Of a stretch of DNA of 60,535 bases, positions 4,267-53,421 are shown in pieces (within the stretch, counting starts at the first letter, position 1; every line of letters begins with the position of its first letter). The DNA is taken from the sequence record MW314855.1, one strand, 5' to 3'. The DNA comes from Mycobacterium phage phiGD23-1. The position numbers and the translations under genes were made by a program. The notes beneath the pieces were generated by a model. That model was not told where the DNA came from and searched no databases. It worked only from the letters and a program-made list of their open reading frames with translations.

Positions 4267-5097
4267 ATGGCTGTTACCCATTTCATCCCCGAAATCTGGT
4301 CGTCCTACATTCTTGAGCGCTACATGGCCAAGAATGTGTTCGCCTCCCTCGTTGACCGCAAGTACGAAGGTGAAGCCCGCAAGGGCAACACCATCCACAT
4401 CCCCGGTGTGGTCGCCCCGGCGGTCAAGGACTACAAGGCGGCTAGCCGCACCACGTCGGCAGACGCCATCAGCGACACCGGAATCGACATCCTGATCGAT
4501 CAGGAGAAGAACTTCGACTTCTACGTCGACGACATCGACAACGCGCAGTCGAACGAAAACCTGCTGCCGCTGTACACCGACGCCGCCGGTGACTCGCTGG
4601 CCACCGACGCCGACCAGTTCATCGCCAACCTGCTTGTCGCCAACGCCACCGGCATGCCATGGTCGTCCAACCCCACCACGGGAGATGGCGCGTTCAACGT
4701 CGTCAAGGACGCCCGCAAGCTGATGAACAAGGCCAACGTTCCTGACGACGATCTGCGTGTCGCGGTTGTGAACGCCGAGTTCGAAGCCTTGCTGGTCGGT
4801 GCTGATTCGAAGCTCACCAGCTTCGATTCGTCCGGCGACACCGCTGGTCTGCGCAACGCCACTGTTGGAAAGCTGCTCGGATTCCGTGTGGTTACCTCGA
4901 ACAACCTGCCTGAGTCTGACTCGCCGCAGGCCGTGTTCTTCCACCAGCGTGCCGCAGCGTTCGTGTCTCAGATTGACGAGGTCGAAGGCATGCGCGCACA
5001 GGACAAGTTCGCCGACCGCATCCGCGGCCTGCATGTGTACGGCGGCAAGGTCGTTCAGGCCCCCGGCGTGCTCGTCTTCAACCGGGCCGGCAGCTAG
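4267..5097 (+). CDS. Major capsid protein
   Basis: 276-aa ORF after the scaffold gene, strong RBS GGAAGGAG upstream; position in head module. Confidence 0.6.
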   Translation: MAVTHFIPEIWSSYILERYMAKNVFASLVDRKYEGEARKGNTIHIPGVVAPAVKDYKAASRTTSADAISDTGIDILIDQEKNFDFYVDDIDNAQSNENLLPLYTDAAGDSLATDADQFIANLLVANATGMPWSSNPTTGDGAFNVVKDARKLMNKANVPDDDLRVAVVNAEFEALLVGADSKLTSFDSSGDTAGLRNATVGKLLGFRVVTSNNLPESDSPQAVFFHQRAAAFVSQIDEVEGMRAQDKFADRIRGLHVYGGKVVQAPGVLVFNRAGS

Positions 5098-5669
5098 TGC
5101 TGGCATCTCCCGCTGACGTCGCCCACGCCCTAGGGCTGGAAGACGAGAACGAGCTCACCGCCTCCCAGCAGGCCCGTGTCGAGGGCCTGCTGGAGAGGGT
5201 GTCTCGAAGGTTTCAGCGGGAGGCCGGACGAACCCTGACCGCAGGGGCGGTGACCGTGCGTGCACTCACGGTGGAGGGCCGGGTACATCTACCGGACCCC
5301 CCGTCTGGAGACACTGTTACGGTCACCGACCTCTGTGGTAACACGCTCGAAGGTGTCATCGAGGGCGACTACGTTGATGTCACCCGCAACGGGTGCCCTG
5401 TCGCCACGGGTGAAATCCTTGTCGTCGAATACACCCGAGATGAGCCGCCCCAGGCCGCAATAGATGCGGTAGCGGCGATGGTCGCGCGCCACCTCACGGT
5501 GGAACCCGGTTCACCCGAATCGAAGTCCACCGACCTCACCGCGGGCGCGGATTTTCGGCAGCGTCTTGCCGACTGGGTGTCTGACACATCCTTGTTCACC
5601 GACGAGGAACTAGCGGAGGCGAGAAGCTACCGCTACCCCGTCCCTAATGTGATCATCCACCGCCTGTGA
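5097..5669 (+). CDS. Head-to-tail adaptor/connector
   Basis: Position after the capsid gene; overlapping start/stop with neighbours. Confidence 0.45.
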   Translation: MLASPADVAHALGLEDENELTASQQARVEGLLERVSRRFQREAGRTLTAGAVTVRALTVEGRVHLPDPPSGDTVTVTDLCGNTLEGVIEGDYVDVTRNGCPVATGEILVVEYTRDEPPQAAIDAVAAMVARHLTVEPGSPESKSTDLTAGADFRQRLADWVSDTSLFTDEELAEARSYRYPVPNVIIHRL

Positions 5670-6001
5670 CCTTCGAATCACTGGCCAGGATCCCGGTCAC
5701 GTACACCCCATACACGGGTGTCACTCAGGATTCCCTAGGGAACGATGTTCCCTCATTCGGCCCCACAGTGGACCTGAAGGCGTACTCGTATGCCCCGCAC
5801 CGGACTGAAGACACGGACGGGCACACCTCACGCGATATCGCAGAAGTCGATCTAGCCATGCCCCCCATGACCGTTGATCTGATGTCCCGATTCGGGATCA
5901 ATGGGAAAACCTACGAGGTGGTGGGTGAACGCGACGAAACAGGCGGATTCCACGGCTGGAAGCCAGGAATCATCGTCGAGCTGAAAAGGGTGACCGGATA
6001 G
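5666..6001 (+). CDS. Head-to-tail connector (GTG start)
   Basis: GTGA overlap with upstream stop; synteny. Confidence 0.4.
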   Translation: MTFESLARIPVTYTPYTGVTQDSLGNDVPSFGPTVDLKAYSYAPHRTEDTDGHTSRDIAEVDLAMPPMTVDLMSRFGINGKTYEVVGERDETGGFHGWKPGIIVELKRVTG

Positions 6002-6267
6002 TGGCCAAGTTCAGGCTGAATCGTAAGGCGCAGAGCGAATTGACGAAGGAAATCGTCGAGAAGGTCTGCGTTCCCATGATGCAGCGGGTCGCTGACGCCT
6101 GCAACCAAGAAGCGGGACTGGAAGACGGTTTCCGCGTCTCGGTAGAAGGCGATGATCCTTTGGATAAGCGCGACTACCGGGCAACAGCTATCGCCGCAAC
6201 GGCAGAGGCCATCCGGTACGACCACAAGCACGACGCACTGCTACACAACTTTGGCGAGGCTGGCTGA
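6001..6267 (+). CDS. Head-to-tail connector / head closure
   Basis: Synteny, coupled starts. Confidence 0.4.
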   Translation: MAKFRLNRKAQSELTKEIVEKVCVPMMQRVADACNQEAGLEDGFRVSVEGDDPLDKRDYRATAIAATAEAIRYDHKHDALLHNFGEAG

Positions 6268-6644
6268 TGTTCGCCTACCACGCCCAAGTGGTCAGGGACT
6301 GGCTGGACGAAAACATGCCGGTTCGGGTGTCCACTGACGTGCCGAAAACGCGCCCAGCGCAGCTGATCACAATCGATTCAGCGCCAATCTCTAGCGGATA
6401 CTCGGGAACCAAAGCCCGCGTACTCGCACGGCGCCGACTGATCATCTACTCATGGGGCGCCAACGAACTGGACGCATACAACCTGATCGAGCAGACGCGT
6501 GAATGGCTCCTCAAACTCCCCGGCAAGGGCCGCGGAGTGCACGCTGTAGACATCGCAGGGGAACCTGCCCGCCGCGATGACATCGAAAGCGAAACGCGAC
6601 GGTTCGTGATGACCGTCGATGTATTAATGCGTTCAAATCCCTGA
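6267..6644 (+). CDS. Tail terminator / neck protein
   Basis: Synteny immediately before the major tail gene. Confidence 0.4.
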   Translation: MFAYHAQVVRDWLDENMPVRVSTDVPKTRPAQLITIDSAPISSGYSGTKARVLARRRLIIYSWGANELDAYNLIEQTREWLLKLPGKGRGVHAVDIAGEPARRDDIESETRRFVMTVDVLMRSNP

Positions 6645-26075: not shown

Positions 26076-26396
26076 CTACGGCTGGCTGTTCCAATGGGCT
26101 AGGTCTTCATCGTCGATCAGTGTGACGACTATCTGGGCGATCCGCTCATCACTCTCGTCAGTGCCGTAGTCCACGATCCACGCCCAGATGTCGTAGCCGC
26201 CGTCGCCGAATCCTGCCGAAAACTGCACCCCGGACCCGTACTTACTGAATAGGTTGTGACCACTACCGATTCCTGGATACTTGGCTGGGGCAAAAGCGGG
26301 GTCGGTGATCGCGGCCATGGCCGAGTCGACCGAGACGCCGCCGATGCGTTCCCATCGACCGTTGCGGCCTGGGGCTGGTGTTGGTGGTTCACCCAT
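26076..26396 (-). CDS. Hypothetical protein (106 aa), reverse-oriented moron preceded by a SAS-like element
   Basis: Only minus-strand gene in a forward block; start codon is the ATG of the conserved 44-nt element E. Confidence 0.5.
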   Translation of the reverse strand: MGEPPTPAPGRNGRWERIGGVSVDSAMAAITDPAFAPAKYPGIGSGHNLFSKYGSGVQFSAGFGDGGYDIWAWIVDYGTDESDERIAQIVVTLIDDEDLAHWNSQP

Positions 26397-26437
26397 CCCT
26401 CAATTTTACGCCGTTGCAGTCGAAGTCGCGGTGTCTA
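26394..26437 (-). promoter_or_regulatory. SAS-like 44-nt element E (minus strand): TAGACACCGCGACTTCGACTGCAACGGCGTAAAATTGAGGGATG
   Basis: Matches consensus TAGACACCGC-N21-wAAwTTGAGGTATG; ends at the start codon of 26076..26396. Confidence 0.7.
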
Positions 26438-26881: not shown

Positions 26882-27229
26882 GTGAACATGGCCGACTGGC
26901 AGCTGCCGCCACTTGCTCAAGACGGCTGGGGCCTAGCGACCTGGGTAGTAATAGCATTCGTCGTCATGTGTTTCCTCGGCATCCTGTGGACGCTGCAACA
27001 CTTCGACCTCAAAGCCATCCGGCACCAAACAGAGAACTCCCACGACACCAACCTGCGTGACGACATCGACGAGATACGCGAGATGGTCCGCGACGGAATG
27101 GCCGACATCCGCAGCGATATCTCCGGTATCCGAAAAGACATCGGAGGACTGCGCGGAGAGCTGCGCACCGAACGCGAAGAACGCATCGAATCCGACGCCC
27201 GCATATGGCGGGGACCCTGGAAGGCTTAG
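26882..27229 (+). CDS. Membrane protein with coiled-coil C-terminal domain
   Basis: 115 aa, N-terminal TM helix, charged repeat-rich C-terminus. Confidence 0.4.
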   Translation: MNMADWQLPPLAQDGWGLATWVVIAFVVMCFLGILWTLQHFDLKAIRHQTENSHDTNLRDDIDEIREMVRDGMADIRSDISGIRKDIGGLRGELRTEREERIESDARIWRGPWKA

Positions 27230-27928: not shown

Positions 27929-29065
27929 ATGGGGCAAAGGCGCACCCGCGGTGACGGGGGACTCTACAAACGCAGCGATGGCATGTGGGTCGGAGCCGTC
28001 GATATCCCCACCGAAGATGGAAAGCGCCGACGCCGAACTGTCTCCTCGAAAGACAAGGCAACCGCCCTGGCGAAGCTGCGCACCCTGCGATCTGAGATCA
28101 CATCGGGGAAGGCGCCCACAACCTCCAACACCACACTCGAACAGTGGCTCACCCACTGGCTTGAGACCATCCAGAAGCCGCGCGTACGTCCAACCACATT
28201 CAAGTACTACGAGACCACCGTCCGTCTCTATATCCTGCCGTTCCTTAACGGCAGTGTGAGGCTGGGCAAGCTCACCCCGGCGGAAGTACGCAAGATGATC
28301 GCCCGCAATGGAACACGCAACGCACAGAAGGCCCACCAGACTCTCGTGAAAGCGCTCGGCGATGCCATGGACGAGGGGATGTTGGATCGCAATGTCGCAG
28401 CGGTCGTCGACAAGCCCAGGCATGTCGCCGAGGAGCGCCAACCGTTCACATTCGCAGAATCTCGCCAAATCATCACCACCGCATTCGAGATCAACGATCC
28501 ATGGGCGACGATGTGGACTTCCATGTTCTTCACCGCCGCCCGGCAGGGCGAGATCATCGGCATGGAGTCCGACCGCTGCGACCTTATCGAGGGGCTGTTC
28601 GACTTCGGTTGGCAGCTACAACAGCTGCCGTCCGATCTTCCAAAAGGCTTCAACTACCGGCCCTGCTACAAGTCCCTGGTGTGGACCAAGCCAAAGAACA
28701 AAGCCGGTGACCGCATCGCCCCAATGACTGCGCCAGTCTGGGCAATGATGAAGACCTACGTCGCCAACGACACCAGACCCAACCCCCACGGCCTGGTATG
28801 GCGGCATGAAGACGGTCACCCGATCTCACCCACTGACGCCTCCGAGGCGTGGCGAGCATTACTGAAAGCTGCCGGCGTGCGGTACCGGTCAATGCACTCG
28901 GCCCGCCACACCACTTCAACGCTGCTCAACAAAGCCCGCGTCTCCCAGGAGACGCGCATGAAAGTGGTTGGCCACTCAACCGCGGCTGCGCACCAGGGCT
29001 ATGTACACGTGGACCACGAGACGGCCCGCGCGGCGCTGTCGAACCTCAATGAGTTGTTGGATTGA
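27929..29065 (+). CDS. int: Tyrosine integrase
   Basis: N-terminal RGDGGLYKR motif, C-terminal catalytic region (…HSARHTTSTLL…HQGYVH) typical of phage tyrosine recombinases; adjacent to attP. Confidence 0.85.
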   Translation: MGQRRTRGDGGLYKRSDGMWVGAVDIPTEDGKRRRRTVSSKDKATALAKLRTLRSEITSGKAPTTSNTTLEQWLTHWLETIQKPRVRPTTFKYYETTVRLYILPFLNGSVRLGKLTPAEVRKMIARNGTRNAQKAHQTLVKALGDAMDEGMLDRNVAAVVDKPRHVAEERQPFTFAESRQIITTAFEINDPWATMWTSMFFTAARQGEIIGMESDRCDLIEGLFDFGWQLQQLPSDLPKGFNYRPCYKSLVWTKPKNKAGDRIAPMTAPVWAMMKTYVANDTRPNPHGLVWRHEDGHPISPTDASEAWRALLKAAGVRYRSMHSARHTTSTLLNKARVSQETRMKVVGHSTAAAHQGYVHVDHETARAALSNLNELLD

Positions 29066-29067
29066 GT

Positions 29068-29703
29068 TCAGCCTGCTAATTCTGGGTGGACCGTGCCGCT
29101 ATCGCGGATATCCCATATTTTTCCGGTGTCAACGCCGTTGAAGTTTATTCGATCGAGAGTGACTTTTTCGTATCCCACATTCAAGACGATGGTGTCCTGA
29201 TTGCTGTTTCCGTATGCATCCTTGGTCGGAAAGGTTCCTTGTATGAAGACCTTTGTGGCGTTGGGGTATTCGGAGTGTGCGTACTTGAGCGCTTCGATGG
29301 TCTTGTTTTGGGCTCCACGGCGCGTAAGCCCCATAAAGACTGCGTCAGAGATTCTGAAGCTTCCGAAGACGACCTCTCCACTCGATCCCGACTCTGTCCG
29401 AAAGGAGACACCTTCGGGCGGTTTTGGCTTCTGAGGTTCTACCGGTCGCGCAGGTTCGACCAGCGCGGGCGCTGATGCTTTCGTTGCCGTGCCAGTGTGG
29501 GTGGATGGCTGAGTATCCTTACGGTCTTGTCCCCCGATCAATCCGATCAGGAAGAGGACGGCAACTGCCCCCACGATCCACGGCCACTTGGGCGTTTCCT
29601 TCTTATTGGGCGACCGCATCAGCTGGTCCGTCCATCTAGCCCCATCGAAGTATCGCAGCCCCGGAGCGCCTGACGGATCTGGATACCAACCCGGCATTGA
29701 CAT
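29068..29703 (-). CDS. DUF2510-type membrane protein (N-terminal GWYPDPSG…RYFDGARWTDQ, one TM helix, extracytoplasmic domain); candidate prophage-expressed exclusion or defence protein
   Basis: Motif seen in the translation; start taken at the internal ATG (29703) with a GGGGG RBS rather than the track start 29817; convergent with int. Confidence 0.5.
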   Translation of the reverse strand: MSMPGWYPDPSGAPGLRYFDGARWTDQLMRSPNKKETPKWPWIVGAVAVLFLIGLIGGQDRKDTQPSTHTGTATKASAPALVEPARPVEPQKPKPPEGVSFRTESGSSGEVVFGSFRISDAVFMGLTRRGAQNKTIEALKYAHSEYPNATKVFIQGTFPTKDAYGNSNQDTIVLNVGYEKVTLDRINFNGVDTGKIWDIRDSGTVHPELAG

Positions 29704-30014
29704 TGCGGCCCCCTTATTCATTGTTGACCTGCAAATCCTACGACTTTGATAGGAGTCTGCGTGCCCATCTGAGAAGTCGAATTTGGTCCCGGCGTTCACG
29801 CTCGGGGTCATGCTCACGGCTTAGGTATTCATCGAGGGCGCGCTGCATGTCGGGGTCTCTCAGCGCTCCCATGGTGCGCCGTTCTGCTGGTACCACTGCT
29901 CGCGTCTTTCCTGTGACCACCATGGCGCAGGTGGGCCGAAAGGGTGTGTGAAGCCCCAGCGGAATGCCGGGTTATTGAACGCGAACCACGGATGCAGAAG
30001 CCGCAGGAGCCTCA

Positions 30015-30197
30015 TCACGACCTCCAGTCCTGAGGAACCGGCCGCCCCTCGGATACGTCCCGAGCGCATGCCCGCATGCCGTATTCGATCGCTCCCGAGT
30101 AGAACCTCGAGTATCGGCCGGCGAAGGTCCGCAAGATCCAATTGGCCAACCGTATCGCCCCGCGCTCAACAACGGTAGCGCCGCCAAGTTCGCTCAT
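30015..30197 (-). CDS. Hypothetical 60-aa protein preceded by SAS-like element F
   Basis: Its start codon is the ATG of the conserved 44-nt element. Confidence 0.45.
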   Translation of the reverse strand: MSELGGATVVERGAIRLANWILRTFAGRYSRFYSGAIEYGMRACARDVSEGRPVPQDWRS

Positions 30198-30238
30198 ACC
30201 CCAATTGTCCCGCGTTTCAGGCGAAGTCGCGGTGTCTA
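30195..30238 (-). promoter_or_regulatory. SAS-like 44-nt element F (minus strand): TAGACACCGCGACTTCGCCTGAAACGCGGGACAATTGGGGTATG; its TAG is the stop codon of 30236..30457
   Basis: Matches the consensus; exact stop-to-start spacing of 44 nt. Confidence 0.7.
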
Positions 30239-30457
30239 CCGCGTCCGGATTCTCAGTAGCCGGTTTACGGTCACCGGATCAGACTTTAGGGCGTCTTCAC
30301 TTTCCAGGATCTGGTTGAGCTTCTGGTAGTACCTCACGGGGGAGAGCCCAAACCGGTCCTGGATGGCCTTCTCTTTGTCTCCGATCTGGCTCCACCAAAT
30401 GTTCTCGAATGCAAGCACTTCCGCAGTATTCGGGCCGATCACGGTATCCACATCCAT
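30236..30457 (-). CDS. DUF3263-like small protein (HTH-like FGLSPVRYYQKLNQ segment)
   Basis: 73 aa; sequence pattern recalled for the actinobacterial DUF3263 family; overlaps by 19 nt with the upstream ImmA-like gene. Confidence 0.45.
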   Translation of the reverse strand: MDVDTVIGPNTAEVLAFENIWWSQIGDKEKAIQDRFGLSPVRYYQKLNQILESEDALKSDPVTVNRLLRIRTR

Positions 30458-30882
30458 TCGTCACCGAGGACGTGTTCAAGTTCAGCGGTTTCCATCGGGT
30501 CGAGCGTGGACATTCGCGTTCGCAGCGTTGGGCCATCCACCCACAGTCCTTCGGCCAGCTCGTCGCAATCTTGCGTCCATCGCAAGCCGTCCACCAAATC
30601 GCCGAAGGTGATGAGTCGTCGCGCAGCGAGCTCGTCAACGATGCGTTCTTCGCGTGCGGCTGCCCTTGGGTCGGTGGGCAGCGGTCCGCGTTCCCAGTGG
30701 ATCAGTTCGTGGGTCAGGGTGCATCGCCGATGGACCTGCTGCAATCGTTTGCACAGCCAAATCTTTTGGCGCGTGAAGCTGGTCAGCCCCCACACTTGTT
30801 CGGGTAGTTCCCGGCGACAATTGATGACCACATGGGGGTAGTGATCAGCGGCGTAGCGCCAGGGATGCCAACGTTGGCTCAT
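30439..30882 (-). CDS. ImmA/IrrE-family (COG2856) zinc metallopeptidase
   Basis: HEXXH motif (THELIHWERG) in a protein of about 147 aa; track ORF runs to 30975 but the start is probably at the internal Met (MSQRWHPW…). Confidence 0.5.
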   Translation of the reverse strand: MSQRWHPWRYAADHYPHVVINCRRELPEQVWGLTSFTRQKIWLCKRLQQVHRRCTLTHELIHWERGPLPTDPRAAAREERIVDELAARRLITFGDLVDGLRWTQDCDELAEGLWVDGPTLRTRMSTLDPMETAELEHVLGDEWMWIP

Positions 30883-31011
30883 GGTGGTGAAGCTAGCGTC
30901 ACCCACTGACAAAAATGGCTCTGACCAGGAACTACATGGATGTAACTTCTCCACGGCAAGGGCCTGCCAAATCACATCAGAGAAACCTCAGATGTGCGTT
31001 ATCGTTGAGTC

Positions 31012-31281
31012 ATGACCGCCGCGATCAGCTACGAAAGCGTCTCGTCCATCGTGGAGACGGACGCTCATGCCGAGTTGCGCGTGTCTGGCAAGCCGAACGC
31101 GAAGTATGTGCAGGTCACCGAGTCGGATGGGACTATCCGGCTTATCCCGCTATCCCTGCTGCATGAGTCGGAGCGGGCGATCCTGGAAAACCCCGGTCTG
31201 TACAACCAGCTCCGAAGGGGTTTGACGGAGTTCGCCGAGGGGCAGAGCGTGTCTAGTGACTGGTTGTTCGCTGACGAGTGA
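31012..31281 (+). CDS. Small protein with Phd/YefM antitoxin-like features (orphan, no adjacent toxin)
   Basis: 89 aa; weak resemblance (…SGKPNAKYVQV…; C-terminal ENPGLYNQLRRG) to the YefM fold. Confidence 0.3.
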   Translation: MTAAISYESVSSIVETDAHAELRVSGKPNAKYVQVTESDGTIRLIPLSLLHESERAILENPGLYNQLRRGLTEFAEGQSVSSDWLFADE

Positions 31282-31338
31282 GCGCCGAGGAAGTTCGGTT
31301 TAGTCCATCCGTTGACCGATGGTTACGGGTCTTTTTAC

Positions 31339-31368
31339 CAAGGTTAGGGTCTATAGACCCTAACCTTG
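31339..31368. terminator. Perfect 30-bp palindrome CAAGGTTAGGGTCTA|TAGACCCTAACCTTG flanked by T-tracts, between convergent transcription units
   Basis: Perfect inverted repeat seen in the sequence; GGGTCTTTTTACC before it and CTCCCTTTTGG after it. Confidence 0.6.
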
Positions 31369-31920
31369 CTCCCTTTTGGATCGGCCCTGACTACCGTTGA
31401 ACACTGCCGCCAAACCGATCACGTCAAACACCGCAATACCGCCCCCGATCCACTCGTGGCCGAGGTAAGCGAACCATGCGGACACGGCAAACCCAGCGAG
31501 AACGGCTGCTAGCCCAAATCGTTGGCCTTGACTGCGCCCCTTATCGGGTATGCGGTAAGGGGCTTCGCGCATATAGATATCCGAGTCGACCGTCTTGCGT
31601 AATGACGAAACATATGTGTCGTACAGCTCTGGGGTGTTGTGCTTCATCCGCTCCATTTCCGCTGGATCCGGTGTCAGCAGAGGCAGATGCAGGTGATTCT
31701 CGGTGAGATACGCGGTGAGCTGTGTTAGCGAGAGACTTGGCGAAGGTTCCGATTCGCCCGCAGCAGGCTCGCGTTGAGGTTGTACGGCTCCGGGGCTGGC
31801 ATCATCTCCCTCAGTGCTTCGTACGTCGCCTCGCCCTTGATGTCGAACAGGCTTCCCAGGCCGATCAGGAACGCACGCGTCCGCGTCCCCGTGTTCGTCT
31901 CCCGAGTGCTCATGGCTCAA
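31360..31920 (-). CDS. Hypothetical protein with C-terminal TM helices, downstream of the repressor gene
   Basis: 186-aa ORF; start uncertain (an internal Met is possible). Confidence 0.35.
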   Translation of the reverse strand: MSHEHSGDEHGDADACVPDRPGKPVRHQGRGDVRSTEGDDASPGAVQPQREPAAGESEPSPSLSLTQLTAYLTENHLHLPLLTPDPAEMERMKHNTPELYDTYVSSLRKTVDSDIYMREAPYRIPDKGRSQGQRFGLAAVLAGFAVSAWFAYLGHEWIGGGIAVFDVIGLAAVFNGSQGRSKREQG

Positions 31921-31997: not shown

Positions 31998-32792
31998 TCA
32001 CGAGTCCATGGGTCGCTGCGGCTTATCCTCGTCCGTCACCCTGCGTGCGGCTAGGCCGTAGTCGCCTGGGTTGAAGTCGACCTCCAAGTCGGATCTGTTG
32101 GGGTACATCACCTCCTCGTTTTCGTTGCCTTCCGGCGATGCTGACGGTTGCGGGGACGGGGTGGGGTCGGATGATGCGGCATGGAGGCCCTCCTTTTGTC
32201 GTTGGTCCCAGTAGCTCGTGTTATTGAATCCGTTGAGTTCTAGTTCTTGCTTGTCAAGAAACAGCCGTTGTAAAGCCGGTCGGGCAGCTGGCCCTACGCC
32301 TGCGGTCAGGAGTTGATCTGCCCAAAGGTTGGCCAGGGCGACGGCGACGCGGGCATTCTGCGCCATCGCGGCTCCAGGATCTGGGGACTCGTCGGCAACC
32401 TGACGCATTGCTGCAAGGGCTGCTTCCCATGCGGTTAAGTACCGCGGTGCGGTTTCCATCGCATGGAGATCGTCGACGGTTACGCCAGCGTGTTCTGGTC
32501 TTGGTGGGGCCGGTTCCGAAGGGGCCGGGTCGACATCAAGGGGCTCAGGCTCGGCTCCCTCGAAAATCTTCCTGACCGAGTGCTTGGCCCAGCCGAGACT
32601 CTTCTCTAGGCGTCTATACGAAAGCTCGCTGACCTCCTGGCCATTCTCAATGGCACTCATTGTGGTGCTCGAAGGGCCGTTCGGCATGTTGTCTTGCCGG
32701 TACCCCAGCCACTTGCGCCGACTCTCAACGATCTGTCCAAGTCGAAGTCGGGCTTGTTGCGGGGATTCGAGCCGCTCCTGACGTTCGGTCAT
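31998..32792 (-). CDS. Putative immunity repressor (XRE-like HTH N-terminal domain, long Pro-rich C-terminal region)
   Basis: HTH segment …LGQIVESRRKWLGYRQ…TMSAIENGQ…; divergent from a Cro-like gene with operators in between; start taken at MTERQ (32792) rather than the track 32969. Confidence 0.5.
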   Translation of the reverse strand: MTERQERLESPQQARLRLGQIVESRRKWLGYRQDNMPNGPSSTTMSAIENGQEVSELSYRRLEKSLGWAKHSVRKIFEGAEPEPLDVDPAPSEPAPPRPEHAGVTVDDLHAMETAPRYLTAWEAALAAMRQVADESPDPGAAMAQNARVAVALANLWADQLLTAGVGPAARPALQRLFLDKQELELNGFNNTSYWDQRQKEGLHAASSDPTPSPQPSASPEGNENEEVMYPNRSDLEVDFNPGDYGLAARRVTDEDKPQRPMDS

Positions 32793-32802
32793 ACGGCAAG
32801 AC

Positions 32803-32820
32803 TGCCAAAAATTTTTGGCA
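32803..32820. promoter_or_regulatory. Perfect 18-bp palindrome TGCCAAAAATTTTTGGCA, candidate operator 11 nt upstream of the repressor start
   Basis: Perfect inverted repeat in the divergent repressor/cro intergenic region. Confidence 0.55.
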
Positions 32821-32900: not shown

Positions 32901-32976
32901 GGCAAAATTGCCACAGAATTGCTTGCGCTTGCGACGGTTAGCCGTTACAGTCGTCCGCATGGGAAGCAAAATTGCC
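32901..32976. promoter_or_regulatory. Two direct copies of GCAAAATTGCC (32902-32912 and 32966-32976), each near-palindromic, flanking the Cro-like start
   Basis: 11-nt exact direct repeat 64 bp apart; both contain the TTGCC/GGCAA half-site found in the 18-bp palindrome. Confidence 0.4.
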
Positions 32977-46832: not shown

Positions 46833-47146
46833 TGCCGCACTCAAGCCCTACCGACTGGATAGCCGGTGGAAGTGTCGCCGCAGACATCGTTGGATGCCTC
46901 ACCGGTCTGGTCGCGGACCTGTCCTGGCAGGATAAAGCGGCGTGCCGTGGACTCCCTACGGAGTGGTGGTTCCCGGACCAAGGCGGCAGCCGGGAATGTA
47001 AGCGGGCCAAGGAAATCTGCCACGGCTGCCCAGTCAAACTCCAATGCCTCCAATTCGCGATAGAGGTACACGACCAGCACGGAATTTACGGGGAGCTGTC
47101 ATTGAAGGACAGGCGCAGGTGGAACCAGGAAAGGAAAGCGGGCTAG
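46832..47146 (+). CDS. whiB: WhiB-family transcription factor (second paralog)
   Basis: C…CxxCP…C pattern and HGIYGE. Confidence 0.7.
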   Translation: MPHSSPTDWIAGGSVAADIVGCLTGLVADLSWQDKAACRGLPTEWWFPDQGGSRECKRAKEICHGCPVKLQCLQFAIEVHDQHGIYGELSLKDRRRWNQERKAG

Positions 47147-47187
47147 ACACCGCGAATGTCAGTGTATCGGAGGATAATTGAGGTATG
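47144..47187 (+). promoter_or_regulatory. SAS-like 44-nt element G: TAGACACCGCGAATGTCAGTGTATCGGAGGATAATTGAGGTATG
   Basis: TAG is the stop of the second whiB; ATG is the start of 47185..47616. Confidence 0.7.
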
Positions 47188-47616
47188 GGAATGACTGATT
47201 TACAGAACGTCCACGAGCGCATTGCGGGCAAGCGTATAGCCTCCGTCGAGGCCGACGGTACGAGGCTGGTGCTAAACGATGGCACTGTGCTGCATCTCTA
47301 CATGTCAGACAGTGACTGTTGTGCTTCCGCCGATGGGAAGTGGGTAATCCAGCCGGACGCGCTGGAGGCGATTATTACCGGCGTTCAGGTTACACCAGAC
47401 GCGGATCGGAGCGGTTATGACGGTGACGGAAATACCAACTACGCCACCATCTCAATTCTGCACAACCAGAACCCCATTGCCCTTGCAGACTGCTATGCCA
47501 ATGACGGTAATGGGGGCTACTACTTCTCCGTGCTATCCCTCCGTGTTGTCATGCCCGGTGACGAAGATGACGTCAAGGTGGAAGTCCTGAACTCTGACTC
47601 CTCGTCCAGCGATTGA
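47185..47616 (+). CDS. Hypothetical protein
   Basis: ORF following the SAS-like element. Confidence 0.4.
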   Translation: MGMTDLQNVHERIAGKRIASVEADGTRLVLNDGTVLHLYMSDSDCCASADGKWVIQPDALEAIITGVQVTPDADRSGYDGDGNTNYATISILHNQNPIALADCYANDGNGGYYFSVLSLRVVMPGDEDDVKVEVLNSDSSSSD

Positions 47617-51479: not shown

Positions 51480-51748
51480 CCGGCGCCATGGCCCCTCCAC
51501 TCGTGGCCATGTGTGAGCGCATCGCGGATAAGAAGATCCCTGACGACACCGTGCCGAAGTTCATGGACGGCCTGCTGGATATCGCCCGCGACGGCGTTGA
51601 CCGCGCCGTGAGTGTGGTGCAGACGTCCGCTGACGGTATTGCCGGTAGCGCGGAAGCTGAACTAGGTCAGCTCGGCTCGGAGATTAGGGGAGTGGTCAAA
51701 GCGGCCAACCCCATAGATATTCTCGGCAGCCTGTTCGGGCGACGCTAG
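51452..51748 (+). CDS. Hypothetical protein
   Basis: ORF ending in the TAG of element A. Confidence 0.35.
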   Translation: MLDRFFAALAGAMAPPLVAMCERIADKKIPDDTVPKFMDGLLDIARDGVDRAVSVVQTSADGIAGSAEAELGQLGSEIRGVVKAANPIDILGSLFGRR

Positions 51749-51789
51749 ACACCGCTGATGTCGCTGCACCGCAGTAAAATTGAGGTATG
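51746..51789 (+). promoter_or_regulatory. SAS-like 44-nt element A: TAGACACCGCTGATGTCGCTGCACCGCAGTAAAATTGAGGTATG
   Basis: Stop-to-start spacer of 44 nt. Confidence 0.7.
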
Positions 51790-51963
51790 AGCATTGAGAC
51801 CGAGCGGCAGTTGAATCGCCGCTGCATTGAGCTGCAAGACGAGATAATCCGCTGGGGCGAGAAGGCGCAGTGGGCGCTTGAGCAAGATGACACCGGATGG
51901 TGGGGCGATGTCCTCGGTGGCATCGTCAAGCGCGGCAAGCTGATGGCAGAGAAGGGCACCTAA
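51787..51963 (+). CDS. Hypothetical 58-aa protein
   Basis: Starts at the ATG of element A. Confidence 0.4.
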   Translation: MSIETERQLNRRCIELQDEIIRWGEKAQWALEQDDTGWWGDVLGGIVKRGKLMAEKGT

Positions 51964-52110
51964 CGATGTGCCCTCCACGCTGTCAGAACTGCATCCATCC
52001 GCAGCATGACCACGAAGGCTGGTTTGGTCGCTGCACCCGCGACGACTGCGAATGTAAGGCAATGCAGGACTGACTTGCCCCTACAGCCTCTCCGTTCTAC
52101 TATCGAACAC

Positions 52111-52356
52111 ATGTTCGACAAGGTGTCATACCGTATCGAAGGTGATGGACCCGTCACAGCGGTACTCACTTACCAAAACCGGGAGTACCGGCACACCTCC
52201 CGAACCATGTGGCTCGGACACGAAGACGGCATGCCCCAAGGCTCCATCCAACTCGACGAGCATGTGTGGGCGCGGCTACAGCGCATCAACGGAACCATAG
52301 AAGCCACCATCACCGACTCTAAGACTGGTGAAAGCTACACCCTCACACCTGAATAG
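52111..52356 (+). CDS. Hypothetical protein
   Basis: ORF ending at the TAG of element B. Confidence 0.3.
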   Translation: MFDKVSYRIEGDGPVTAVLTYQNREYRHTSRTMWLGHEDGMPQGSIQLDEHVWARLQRINGTIEATITDSKTGESYTLTPE

Positions 52357-52397
52357 ACACCGCGACTTACGCTGTAGCTCGGTAAAATTGAGGTATG
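52354..52397 (+). promoter_or_regulatory. SAS-like 44-nt element B: TAGACACCGCGACTTACGCTGTAGCTCGGTAAAATTGAGGTATG
   Basis: Stop-to-start spacer. Confidence 0.7.
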
Positions 52398-52631
52398 GAT
52401 GATCCCGAGATTGAAGTCGCTGAGGCGGTGTGTAAACGGCACAACTGGGACGGCATGATGTTTTGCGCTTGCACTGCCGCTGCTCGTGAAGCTTTGAAGC
52501 GAGTGGGCGCCGATCTGCAATCCGTCGATGGCGTCTTAGGTCTGCTTCATCATCGAGGGCTTGTTGACTCCGAGCGCAATAGAGCTGATGTGAAAGCTGC
52601 CCTCGAAATCGTACAGAGGTACACCCGATGA
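52395..52631 (+). CDS. Hypothetical protein
   Basis: Starts at the ATG of element B. Confidence 0.4.
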   Translation: MDDPEIEVAEAVCKRHNWDGMMFCACTAAAREALKRVGADLQSVDGVLGLLHHRGLVDSERNRADVKAALEIVQRYTR

Positions 52632-52903
52632 CTGAACCATCTCAAGCCCATATAGACCGGGCACGTGAACTCGGCCTCTCTTTCGATCCTTCTGATACAT
52701 CGGATGAAGAGTTAAGCCGTGCTATCGCAACGTATGAGCGGGTTTACATCGAGGCGATGACCGAGAATGCTGGTAGGGACACTGATACTCCTACTGAGCG
52801 CCGCAAGATGCTGGGCGTATGGACTCAGCGCGATGAAGAAGAGGCCAAGGAAGCCGCTGAACGGCGGCGGATGTTCGGCTCCCGACGAATCCCACCCGCC
52901 TAG
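52628..52903 (+). CDS. Hypothetical protein
   Basis: ORF ending at the TAG of element C. Confidence 0.35.
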   Translation: MTEPSQAHIDRARELGLSFDPSDTSDEELSRAIATYERVYIEAMTENAGRDTDTPTERRKMLGVWTQRDEEEAKEAAERRRMFGSRRIPPA

Positions 52904-52945
52904 ACACCGCTGATTCCTCTGAAACGTCGGATAATTGAAGGTATG
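52901..52945 (+). promoter_or_regulatory. SAS-like 45-nt element C: TAGACACCGCTGATTCCTCTGAAACGTCGGATAATTGAAGGTATG
   Basis: Stop-to-start spacer. Confidence 0.7.
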
Positions 52946-53215
52946 GACATCACCGAGAAGCCATTGACCAACCTGGCTGACACAATACATACAGCCCTGA
53001 TCGGACACAGGCCGGACGACTACGCCTGCTACTACAAGCAGCTTTTCAATGTGTTTGGAGCGCCCGGCATCCCGAACACCTACGAGGCGGTACTCAAGCG
53101 TTACGGCAGGGTAATCCATCGAGAGACATTCTGGCGGCGCAAGAGCGCAGAGAAGCAATGCATCGCATGGAAGCGCTTGTATGACGCCGTCGTACTACCA
53201 CCTCCACAGTCCTAG
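52943..53215 (+). CDS. Hypothetical protein
   Basis: Between elements C and D. Confidence 0.4.
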   Translation: MDITEKPLTNLADTIHTALIGHRPDDYACYYKQLFNVFGAPGIPNTYEAVLKRYGRVIHRETFWRRKSAEKQCIAWKRLYDAVVLPPPQS

Positions 53216-53256
53216 ACACCGCTGATCCCGTTGAAACGCGGGATAATTGAGGTATG
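53213..53256 (+). promoter_or_regulatory. SAS-like 44-nt element D: TAGACACCGCTGATCCCGTTGAAACGCGGGATAATTGAGGTATG
   Basis: Stop-to-start spacer. Confidence 0.7.
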
Positions 53257-53421
53257 AACGACGAATTGAGCTTCCTGCTTGAGGCGTCGCCGGAAGAGTG
53301 GGATACCTTCATTGGATGCCCACATACAGGCAAGTCCTACACGGAAGTGGGACGGCTAACCGGCGAGGTGTTCACGCGCTGCTGCGACTGTCACACGGCT
53401 TTGCCTAATCTCCCGTCCTAG
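53254..53421 (+). CDS. Hypothetical 55-aa Cys-rich protein
   Basis: Starts at the ATG of element D. Confidence 0.35.
   Translation: MNDELSFLLEASPEEWDTFIGCPHTGKSYTEVGRLTGEVFTRCCDCHTALPNLPS

Follow-up and report, generated by a model that had tools for sequence, protein, structure and literature searches.

Background

To our knowledge, little is understood of the way in which mycobacterial and related prophages detect DNA damage, because their repressors are not of the LexA-like, self-cleaving kind. The closest described systems pair a COG2856 protein with an XRE-type repressor, and this study compares them with a block of leftward genes, gp7 to gp2, in Mycobacterium phage phiGD23-1 (MW314855.1; the window is the whole stretch of DNA that was analysed, 60,535 nucleotides). 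In ICEBs1 of Bacillus subtilis, which is activated by DNA damage, a short stand-alone COG2856 peptidase with an HEXXH motif (ImmA) is encoded downstream of an XRE repressor (ImmR) and beside the integrase, in the order immR-immA-int. In Deinococcus, IrrE (PprI) is the COG2856 protease of a damage response that is independent of SOS, and it cleaves the XRE repressor DdrO at IEL/RGKRP, after a hydrophobic residue and before Arg-Gly (PMC6868357). IrrE is about 100 residues longer than the phage peptidase described here, has a GAF-like domain, is reported to be activated post-translationally by zinc signalling (PMC7907104), and controls a chromosomal regulon, not a prophage switch. The pair Rir/Crh of Streptococcus thermophilus phage TP-J34 is a temperate-phage COG2856/XRE pair that is required for stress-induced induction. 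On the side of the host, the PafBC regulon promoters of mycobacteria (RecA-NDp) have a consensus from chromatin immunoprecipitation sequencing, tGTCgg(N10)tA(N3)T, in which a -26 element read by PafB is combined with a SigA -10 element and there is no -35 element (PMC8635444).

The locus of phiGD23-1 belongs to the known COG2856/XRE kind, and what is new, with good support from the comparison between relatives, is a predicted leaderless promoter of the PafBC type, a NapA-like partner gene, and a motif in the tail of the repressor. The leftward genes appear to form an operon whose first two genes, gp7 and gp6, would be a DNA-damage-responsive COG2856/XRE prophage induction module; the probability of this reading is put at roughly 0.55. 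A preliminary description, made from the sequence by itself, had suggested among other things an anti-repressor protease of the ImmR/ImmA type, and this suggestion is supported by the fold of gp7, by synteny with an XRE repressor and int in relatives, and by a promoter of the DNA-damage type.

The peptidase

The gp7 gene (30439..30882, minus strand) encodes a protein of 147 amino acids that, by its motif, its match to phrog_87, and its predicted fold, is a minimal HEXXH metallopeptidase of the IrrE/ImmA type (COG2856, M78), as the preliminary description had proposed. The motif is HELIH (residues 58-62), and the match to the metallo-protease profile phrog_87 has E = 3.9e-18. Among 34 homologues, with identities down to 47%, H58, E59, H62, E78, and E79 are invariant; E78 and E79 are the candidates for the third metal ligand. 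The AlphaFold2 model has a predicted local distance difference test score (pLDDT) of 94, and its top Foldseek matches in the PDB are M. tuberculosis PrpR (6CZ6), IrrE (3DTE/3DTI), and PprI (8SLN/8SLM), with probabilities of 0.98-1.0, query template modelling scores of 0.56-0.67, and E values of about 0.02-0.3. The modelled fold is that of IrrE/PprI/PrpR (COG2856), with IrrE, together with PrpR, as the best structural match. A profile of the peptidase family had no match among PDB sequences, where the fold search alone succeeded. Because Pfam M78 similarity is below threshold (another difference from ImmA) and PDB sequences give no match, yet phrog_87 does match, gp7 is a divergent, minimal member of the IrrE/ImmA kind. 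By tblastn the peptidase is present in 260 phage records, among them 220 from Gordonia, 32 from Mycobacterium, and 4 from Rhodococcus phages, and a profile search of 1.84 billion proteins returned 856 cluster representatives at E <= 1e-10, nearly all of them about 135-155 amino acids long.

In GenBank the gene starts at GTG 30975, which gives 178 amino acids. The start used in the preliminary description, ATG 30882, is better backed, because homologues are about 140-147 residues long, relatives have in-frame stop codons upstream, the upstream stretch coincides with the conserved promoter described below, and the distance to that promoter has leaderless geometry; the annotated start is therefore corrected from GTG 30975 to ATG 30882. 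When translated, the extension seemed conserved (HxCxSWSxxFLSV), and it was ruled out as coding both because of the in-frame stops in relatives and because the conservation is at the level of the DNA and reaches phages in another frame. Ill-fitting annotated starts of the peptidase gene also occur in several relatives (prophiGD12-2 gp5, Howe gp42). The NormanBulbieJr preprint contains nothing about the peptidase.

A predicted PafBC-type promoter before the peptidase gene

Directly before gp7 lies a candidate hybrid promoter (30890..30911, minus strand; TGTCAGTGGGTGACGCTAGCTT), with the -26 element TGTCAG, a spacer of 10 nucleotides, and the -10 element TAGCTT. It is the only match to TGTCRG-N10-TANNNT in the window. 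As in the PafBC consensus, it has GTC at -26, a SigA-type -10 element, and no recognisable -35 element, and PafBC dependence of the gp7 promoter would follow from this likeness. Because the motif ends 7 nucleotides before ATG 30882, the messenger RNA (mRNA) of gp7 would be leaderless and would start at that codon. The known targets of PafBC are host DNA-repair genes, whereas in the phage promoters the motif is combined with a conserved upstream box, and the leaderless start is fixed. A relaxed PafBC pattern is not enriched across the whole window (six found versus seven expected), and because a single match in the window could be chance, the case for the promoter rests on its position and its conservation.

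Conservation is clear when the DNA upstream of the peptidase ATG is aligned for seven phages: a non-coding block, TTACAYnnnTGTAATTCCTGGTCAGGGCGATTTTTGTCGGTG-N8-TAGCTT-N7/8-ATG, is conserved far above its surroundings, and in its 3' half it fits the PafBC consensus exactly. Phages of Mycobacterium and Gordonia keep the motif even where the identity of their peptidases is just 44-74%. A 15-mer of the upstream box retrieved 119 IMG/VR contigs, and the whole composite is present in 19, in all of which the start codon of a peptidase homologue follows 7-8 nucleotides on. For a wider comparison, genome loci were picked by protein similarity only and the expectation was taken from the background rate of the motif in the same loci. 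Of 59 such loci, from genera that include Mycobacterium, Gordonia, Williamsia, Nocardioides, Cellulomonas, and Arthrobacter, 24 have the strict motif where the peptidase gene starts (0.10 expected). In a larger set of 124 non-redundant genome and viral loci across Actinomycetota, also chosen by protein similarity, the strict motif is found at the peptidase start in 68 (0.15 expected) and a relaxed leaderless pattern in 80 (0.28 expected). The distance from the -10 element to the start codon is 7-8 nucleotides in 70 of the 77 PafBC-class promoters, which is the geometry of a leaderless transcript. The comparative enrichment of the motif is strong, and it gives good support to the prediction that the gp7 promoter is of a DNA-damage-responsive type. 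A search of the accessible literature returned no paper linking PafBC or its motif with prophage genes or with the induction of prophages or mycobacteriophages.

The motif could instead be without function, with the genes behind it being ordinary cargo that is transcribed by read-through from the repressor promoter. As this explanation would have it, a third of shuffled sequences contain a single match in 60 kb by chance, and genes 40-43 of phage Sbash appear as one lysogenic transcript group. Chance does not readily account for a motif that is enriched several hundred-fold at one position in different orders of Actinomycetota, for the fixed 7-8 nucleotides to the start codon, or for the replacement of the motif by an SOS box in other lineages, and the explanation is considered highly improbable.

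The SOS box is a LexA box, TCGAAC-N4-GTTCTA, which precedes the peptidase start codon in 9 of the 124 loci, with none expected (0 in 1.9 Mb of background). The published actinobacterial LexA consensus is tCGAAC-N4-GNNCGa (PMC9380542). Eight of the nine loci have no PafBC motif, and the ninth (L137) has both, its box possibly lying within coding sequence. That PafBC and LexA converge on one gene family is the strongest argument for damage-induced expression as a selected property. No LexA box was found at the gp7 promoter.

The conserved upstream box (30922..30948, minus strand), gAATnACA-N4-TGTAATTCCTGGTCA, is an imperfect palindrome followed by CTGGTCA. It has one match in the window, is kept in all seven annotated phage relatives, and occurs in 51 of the 77 PafBC-class promoters and in no SOS-class promoter; its half-sites co-vary (variant TAACA..TGTTA). 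A role as immunity operator was ruled out, as the box is missing from the repressor-cro intergenic region and is common to heteroimmune phages. That intergenic region has palindromes of its own, an 18-bp perfect one (TGCCAAAAATTTTTGGCA, 32803-32820) and a related one (GGCAAAATTGCC, 32901-32912), which are likely operators of the repressor gp11 and unrelated to the upstream box. The spacing is wrong for a LexA site (AAC-N6-GTT versus the published AAC-N4-GTT), and binding by gp6 is unsupported, as phages of the Brocalys type retain the box and have no DUF3263 gene.

Similar promoters were seen at other genes. Three loci, from Gordonia shandongensis (L143), Williamsia soli (L144), and Williamsia deligens (L148), have a second PafBC-like leaderless promoter on the opposite strand, right before a serine integrase gene (MRAIIYTRVS...), which suggests damage-induced expression of the recombinase. 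Two further loci (L163, L171) have such a promoter before a conserved uncharacterised gene (MASFPEEVLVRTT...RWFERTAWW). In the window itself, the sole perfect LexA box (TCGAACACATGTTCGA, 52103-52118, plus strand) overlaps the ATG at 52111 of a gene for 81 amino acids (52111-52356), with a -10-like TACTAT 7 nucleotides 5' of that ATG. The product matches phrog_37605 over its full length, and the GenBank version of the gene (gp65) is 35 codons longer. The prophage seems to carry here, at 52098-52118, a second leaderless promoter predicted to respond to DNA damage, of the LexA type.

The repressor and its tail

The proposed substrate of gp7 is the immunity repressor gp11 (31998..32792, minus strand, as annotated in GenBank); gp12, a cro-like gene, is transcribed divergently from it. 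A profile built from the N-terminal domains of gp11 and its relatives matches P22 C2, the 434 repressor, SinR, and HipB (E values of 1e-11 to 1e-3); gp11 and the repressors paired with these peptidases are of the XRE type. In the relatives, the peptidase gene is on the strand of the repressor gene and directly downstream of it. The order in Sbash and Cashline is repressor, peptidase, DUF3263, int, and Sbash genes 43-42-41-40, which are transcribed in lysogens (PMC6426596), retain the immR-immA-int order. In prophiGD12-2 the peptidase-DUF3263 pair comes after the repressor, and Howe has the same order except that a toxin-antitoxin pair separates the repressor from the peptidase. Brocalys has a repressor and a peptidase gene but no DUF3263 gene. 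The adjacency seen in Sbash, Cashline, prophiGD12-2, and Brocalys is not repeated in the window: the preliminary description placed the block between int and the repressor gene, and gp8 (plus strand), gp9, and gp10 intervene between block and repressor.

The repressors are very diverse, yet a C-terminal tail with a hydrophobic residue, Ala-Ala, and then Arg is often found in those that accompany these peptidases. The tail of gp11 (...DYGLAARRVTDEDKPQRPMDS) contains ...DYGLAARRV..., of which DYGLAARR is encoded at 32040-32063. Comparable tails are those of Sbash gp43 (...LDLAARRVENDDKPE) and Brocalys gp41 (...GEAARKVEDEQKPS), of the repressors in Geodermatophilus (...ALAARRGDSEG...), Schaalia (...KLAARKVTN...), and Jatrophihabitans (...KAARRGSVEPPQR), and of those in SOS-class loci (...LAARKGKT...). 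A strict expression for the tail (AAR[RK]V..DKP) fitted close relatives only, and it was widened and then compared with background. Of 126 non-redundant open reading frames (ORFs) upstream of the peptidase, 26 have AAR[RK] within their last 40 residues, versus 1.6% of other ORFs from the same loci (p = 4e-21), and 21 have LAA followed by a polar residue, versus 1.3% of the others. In prophiGD27-1 (locus L002) two immunity repressors are annotated, at 4381-5271 and 5919-6311; the longer (gp11) has the ...EYGLAARRVEGFDKPE tail, and the shorter (gp13, 130 amino acids) has a related helix-turn-helix (HTH) domain and no tail.

A cut after Ala-Ala that leaves an -AA tag is proposed because of the IrrE site in DdrO and because the C-terminal -AA tags of mycobacteriophage repressors and integrases serve degradation (PMC8092301). 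By this proposal gp11 would be a proteolytic substrate of gp7, and the cut may expose an -AA degron. Unlike the site in ImmR, the proposed site in gp11 is in the extreme C-terminal tail and not between the last two helices.

It is also conceivable that gp7, induced by damage, would bind gp11 and block its oligomerisation with no cutting, as Rir acts on Crh. Fold, synteny, and promoter are the same evidence for this explanation as for proteolysis, and there is the precedent of a COG2856 protein without detectable cleavage (PMC6868357). The extended metallopeptidase motif of Rir is incomplete, whereas gp7 keeps all of the invariant metal-site residues; the invariance of HEXXH and of the two downstream glutamates in the 34 homologues argues for retained catalysis, and the conserved Ala-Ala-Arg tail resembles a site more than an interface. 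Action by binding is regarded as improbable.

The NapA-like partner

The gp6 gene (30236..30457, minus strand; labelled HTH DNA binding in GenBank) encodes a NapA-like small DNA-binding protein. That it is a DUF3263-like protein, as had been noted earlier, is borne out by Pfam PF11662 (E = 2.6e-25; 88.5 bits versus a cutoff of 22.3). The overlap of 19 nucleotides between gp7 and gp6 that was described with it holds if gp6 starts at ATG 30457; the GenBank start, GTG 30442, gives 4 nucleotides instead. From end to end, gp6 aligns with the protein chain of PDB 9N2G/9N2N (E = 8e-24), structures of M. tuberculosis NapA (Rv0430, also in DUF3263) on AT-rich DNA that were released in October 2025 and were also returned by the fold search, with 46% identity in the structural alignment. 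The NCBIfam NapA equivalog is not reached (71.5 bits versus a cutoff of 160), and because its score is so far below the cutoff, gp6 is taken as a phage paralogue and not as host NapA. A further difference from NapA is that gp6 is encoded by a phage and always coupled to the peptidase gene: the start of the gp6 homologue overlaps the peptidase stop codon in almost all relatives. DUF3263 is present with 58 of the 77 PafBC-class genes versus none of the 8 SOS-class genes (Fisher p = 5e-5). A function as excisionase was ruled out, given that Sbash and prophiGD12-2 have separate annotated excisionases. Literature searches on 9N2G/9N2N and on the motif string returned nothing relevant.

Such close coupling raises the question of whether gp7 has a different substrate, either gp6, in a module of the toxin-antitoxin type, or a protein of the host such as a regulator or a nucleoid protein, with the result that the damaged cell is reprogrammed and no prophage switch is thrown. 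The translational coupling in almost all relatives and the kinship of gp6 to host NapA agree with this, as does the distance between gp7 and gp11 in the window. However, gp6 cannot be a universal substrate, because about a quarter of the PafBC-class loci and all of the SOS-class loci have no DUF3263 gene, and it is XRE repressors with a common tail motif that recur as neighbours of the peptidase. The chance that the true substrate is one of these other proteins is considered slim.

Proposed mechanism

If gp7 and gp6 are a prophage induction module, DNA damage would give rise to single-stranded DNA, which would activate the host activator PafBC, and PafBC would recruit RNA polymerase at 30890-30911, where the -26/-10 hybrid promoter lies. 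A leaderless mRNA would be produced from ATG 30882, encoding the zinc peptidase gp7 and the translationally coupled NapA-like gp6. The peptidase would then inactivate gp11, most likely by a cut in the conserved tail ...DYGLAA/RRV..., and the loss of gp11 would derepress the cro-like gene and the lytic genes. The ssrA-like -AA C-terminus left by a cut after Ala-Ala could pass the rest of the repressor to ClpXP. Compared with ImmA, gp7 would have its own DNA-damage promoter, a leaderless mRNA, and a coupled NapA-like gene, and its proposed activation is transcriptional, unlike that of IrrE.

Several observations weigh against this mechanism. One match of the promoter motif in a window is not rare by itself, as it arose by chance in 33 of 100 shuffles, and neither promoter type was found in about 29% of the 124 loci under the patterns used. 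The score of gp7 against Pfam M78 (PF06114) is sub-threshold, at 13.5 bits versus a cutoff of 22. The repressor gene of the window is 1.1 kb from gp7, with three intervening genes, one of them on the opposite strand, and the tail motif is limited to about 20% of the upstream ORFs. The tail is long and probably disordered, and a cut only about 15 residues from its C-terminal end would not on its own disrupt a dimer, unlike the cuts in DdrO and ImmR; the homologous pair Rir/Crh acts without cleavage (PMC6868357). Sbash genes 40-43 are transcribed in lysogens (PMC6426596), and because this is so before any induction, transcription alone may not be the switch.

A broader proposal, which is tentative and open to doubt, is that actinobacterial prophages exploit the LexA-independent PafBC response in this way: from a leaderless promoter an IrrE-like protease would be made, a cut in the Ala-Ala tail would create an -AA degron, and ClpXP would remove the repressor; some lineages would have been rewired to LexA, and the NapA paralogue and the upstream box would add a layer of control. 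If the induction module is real, it would provide a concrete circuit, from PafBC or LexA to a COG2856 protease to an XRE repressor, that spans hundreds of sequenced Mycobacterium and Gordonia phages as well as prophages across Actinomycetota, and that is accessible in existing M. smegmatis lysogens (Sbash, Che9c) and existing pafBC mutants. The PafBC regulon would be extended to mobile elements. In M. abscessus, prophages with toxin and defence genes could be induced by antibiotics that damage DNA; in therapeutic phages, removal of the module might stabilise lysogens, and the promoter could be used as a compact damage-inducible part.

Gene layout, downstream genes, and the question of defence

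By megablast, the window from 27750 is the left end of the M. abscessus prophage prophiGD21-2 (MW584204, cluster MabA1, attB-5) with 100% identity, and the window is a circularly permuted MabA1 prophage of M. abscessus close to prophiGD21-2. This block is also present in prophiGD11-1 and prophiGD27-1, and a DNA search with the block gave no match in prophiGD17-2. Between int (27929..29065, plus strand) and the rightward gp8, GenBank has six leftward genes, gp7 to gp2. The preliminary description had recognised four, all of them correctly placed on the minus strand and with the right family calls, but it overlooked gp3 (29738..29872) and gp4 (29860..30015) and, with them, the promoter upstream of the block and the NapA identity of gp6. 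Spacing within the block is tight: the overlap of gp7 and gp6 is followed by a gap of 38 nucleotides that contains a repeat, gp5 and gp4 overlap by 1 nucleotide and gp4 and gp3 by 13 nucleotides, and 16 nucleotides separate gp3 from gp2. About 110 nucleotides past the gp2 stop codon, a consensus scan found a terminator-like hairpin (28937..28956, minus strand) with an 8-bp G+C-rich stem and a T-rich tail, which is also present in the minimum-free-energy fold and is likely the end of the leftward operon. Because of the tight spacing and the hairpin, gp7 to gp2 fit one operon, in which gp5 to gp2 would be co-transcribed with gp7 and gp6.

The repeat in the 38-nucleotide gap (30190-30238, minus strand) had been described as an element like the start-associated sequences (SAS) of phages, lying between two genes of the block, and it does run between the stop codon of gp6 and the ATG of gp5. 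It is one of seven copies in the window (families D1/D4 and I1-I8), which are at 26387-26437 and 30188-30238 (minus strand) and at 47142-47192, 51744-51794, 52352-52402, 52899-52949, and 53211-53261 (plus strand). The element is 45-51 nucleotides long (TAGACACCGC...GAAACGCGGGATAATTGAGGTATG), and each copy extends from one gene's stop codon to the ATG of the gene that follows. It resembles the start-associated sequences of Cluster K phages.

The 60-amino acid ORF at 30015..30197 (minus strand) is a GenBank coding sequence, gp5, as the earlier reading had it; in prophiGD43A-1 a protein with 90% identity is again encoded after a DUF3263 gene, and searches of Pfam, PHROG, and NCBIfam gave no family match for gp5. 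The product of gp4 (minus strand) is 51 amino acids long and rich in Trp and Pro, matches phrog_4152 (E = 4.6e-10), and is 92% identical in prophiGD43A-1. For gp3 (44 amino acids, minus strand) there was no family match in PHROG or NCBIfam. PADLOC, NCBIfam, and Pfam contained nothing for gp3, gp5, gp8, and gp10, and PDB sequence searches with gp2 and gp8 were empty. The last gene, gp2 (29068..29721, minus strand), encodes a single-pass membrane protein with an N-terminal DUF2510 motif, one transmembrane helix, and, at the C-terminus, a domain of about 130 amino acids with no assigned fold. A DUF2510 membrane protein had been called at 29068..29703, and the call agrees with Pfam PF10708 (E = 2.2e-13; 50.1 bits versus a cutoff of 24), followed by one hydrophobic helix. 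We know of no function for the DUF2510 family. Full-length gp2 is confined to three near-identical prophages, while membrane proteins with DUF2510 are again encoded behind the peptidase-DUF3263 pair in Sbash and in three other loci (L131, L132, L165).

A membrane- or protease-based exclusion or abortive-infection system had also been suggested for the block. In such a system gp7, with gp6 and/or gp2, would sense a heterotypic phage or its DNA damage and block the infection, by exclusion or as a toxin-type COG2856 protein. The spot beside int at the end of a prophage is typical of lysogenically expressed defence genes (PMC6426596, PMC8092301), the Sbash homologues of gp6 (gene 41) and gp7 (gene 42) were named as candidates for a defence against phage Giles, DUF2510 membrane proteins recur as noted, and a weak match to a Sie-like PHROG covers the transmembrane segment of gp2 (E = 0.0018). 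However, PADLOC-DB 2.0 gave no match at E <= 0.1 for any of the ten proteins gp2 to gp11, and deletion of Sbash gene 39, which encodes a lysogenically expressed predicted membrane protein with a DUF2510 motif, left the defence profile unchanged, so that the suggestion finds no positive support. The peptidase accompanies the immunity repressor and not a fixed effector, the genes downstream of the pair vary among phages, and gp2 itself is restricted to the three near-identical prophages. A defence function of the block is considered unlikely, and prophage induction by gp7 and gp6 remains the preferred reading.

Some minor features of the region were also seen. A 21-nucleotide inverted repeat with 95% complementarity links 27168-27188, in the ORF 26882..27229 (EREERIE), with 30639-30659, in the peptidase gene (codons for AREERIV), and probably arose by chance from codons that are alike on the two strands. 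The gp8 gene occurs in three near-identical prophages only. Between gp8 and gp9, which are convergent, there is a perfect inverted repeat with a 13-bp stem (CAAGGTTAGGGTCTATAGACCCTAACCTTG, 31339-31368), probably a two-way terminator for the two genes. An ORF of 40 amino acids (31278-31400) overlaps the gp8 stop codon by 4 nucleotides and runs into this inverted repeat, and it might be the remnant of a partner gene.

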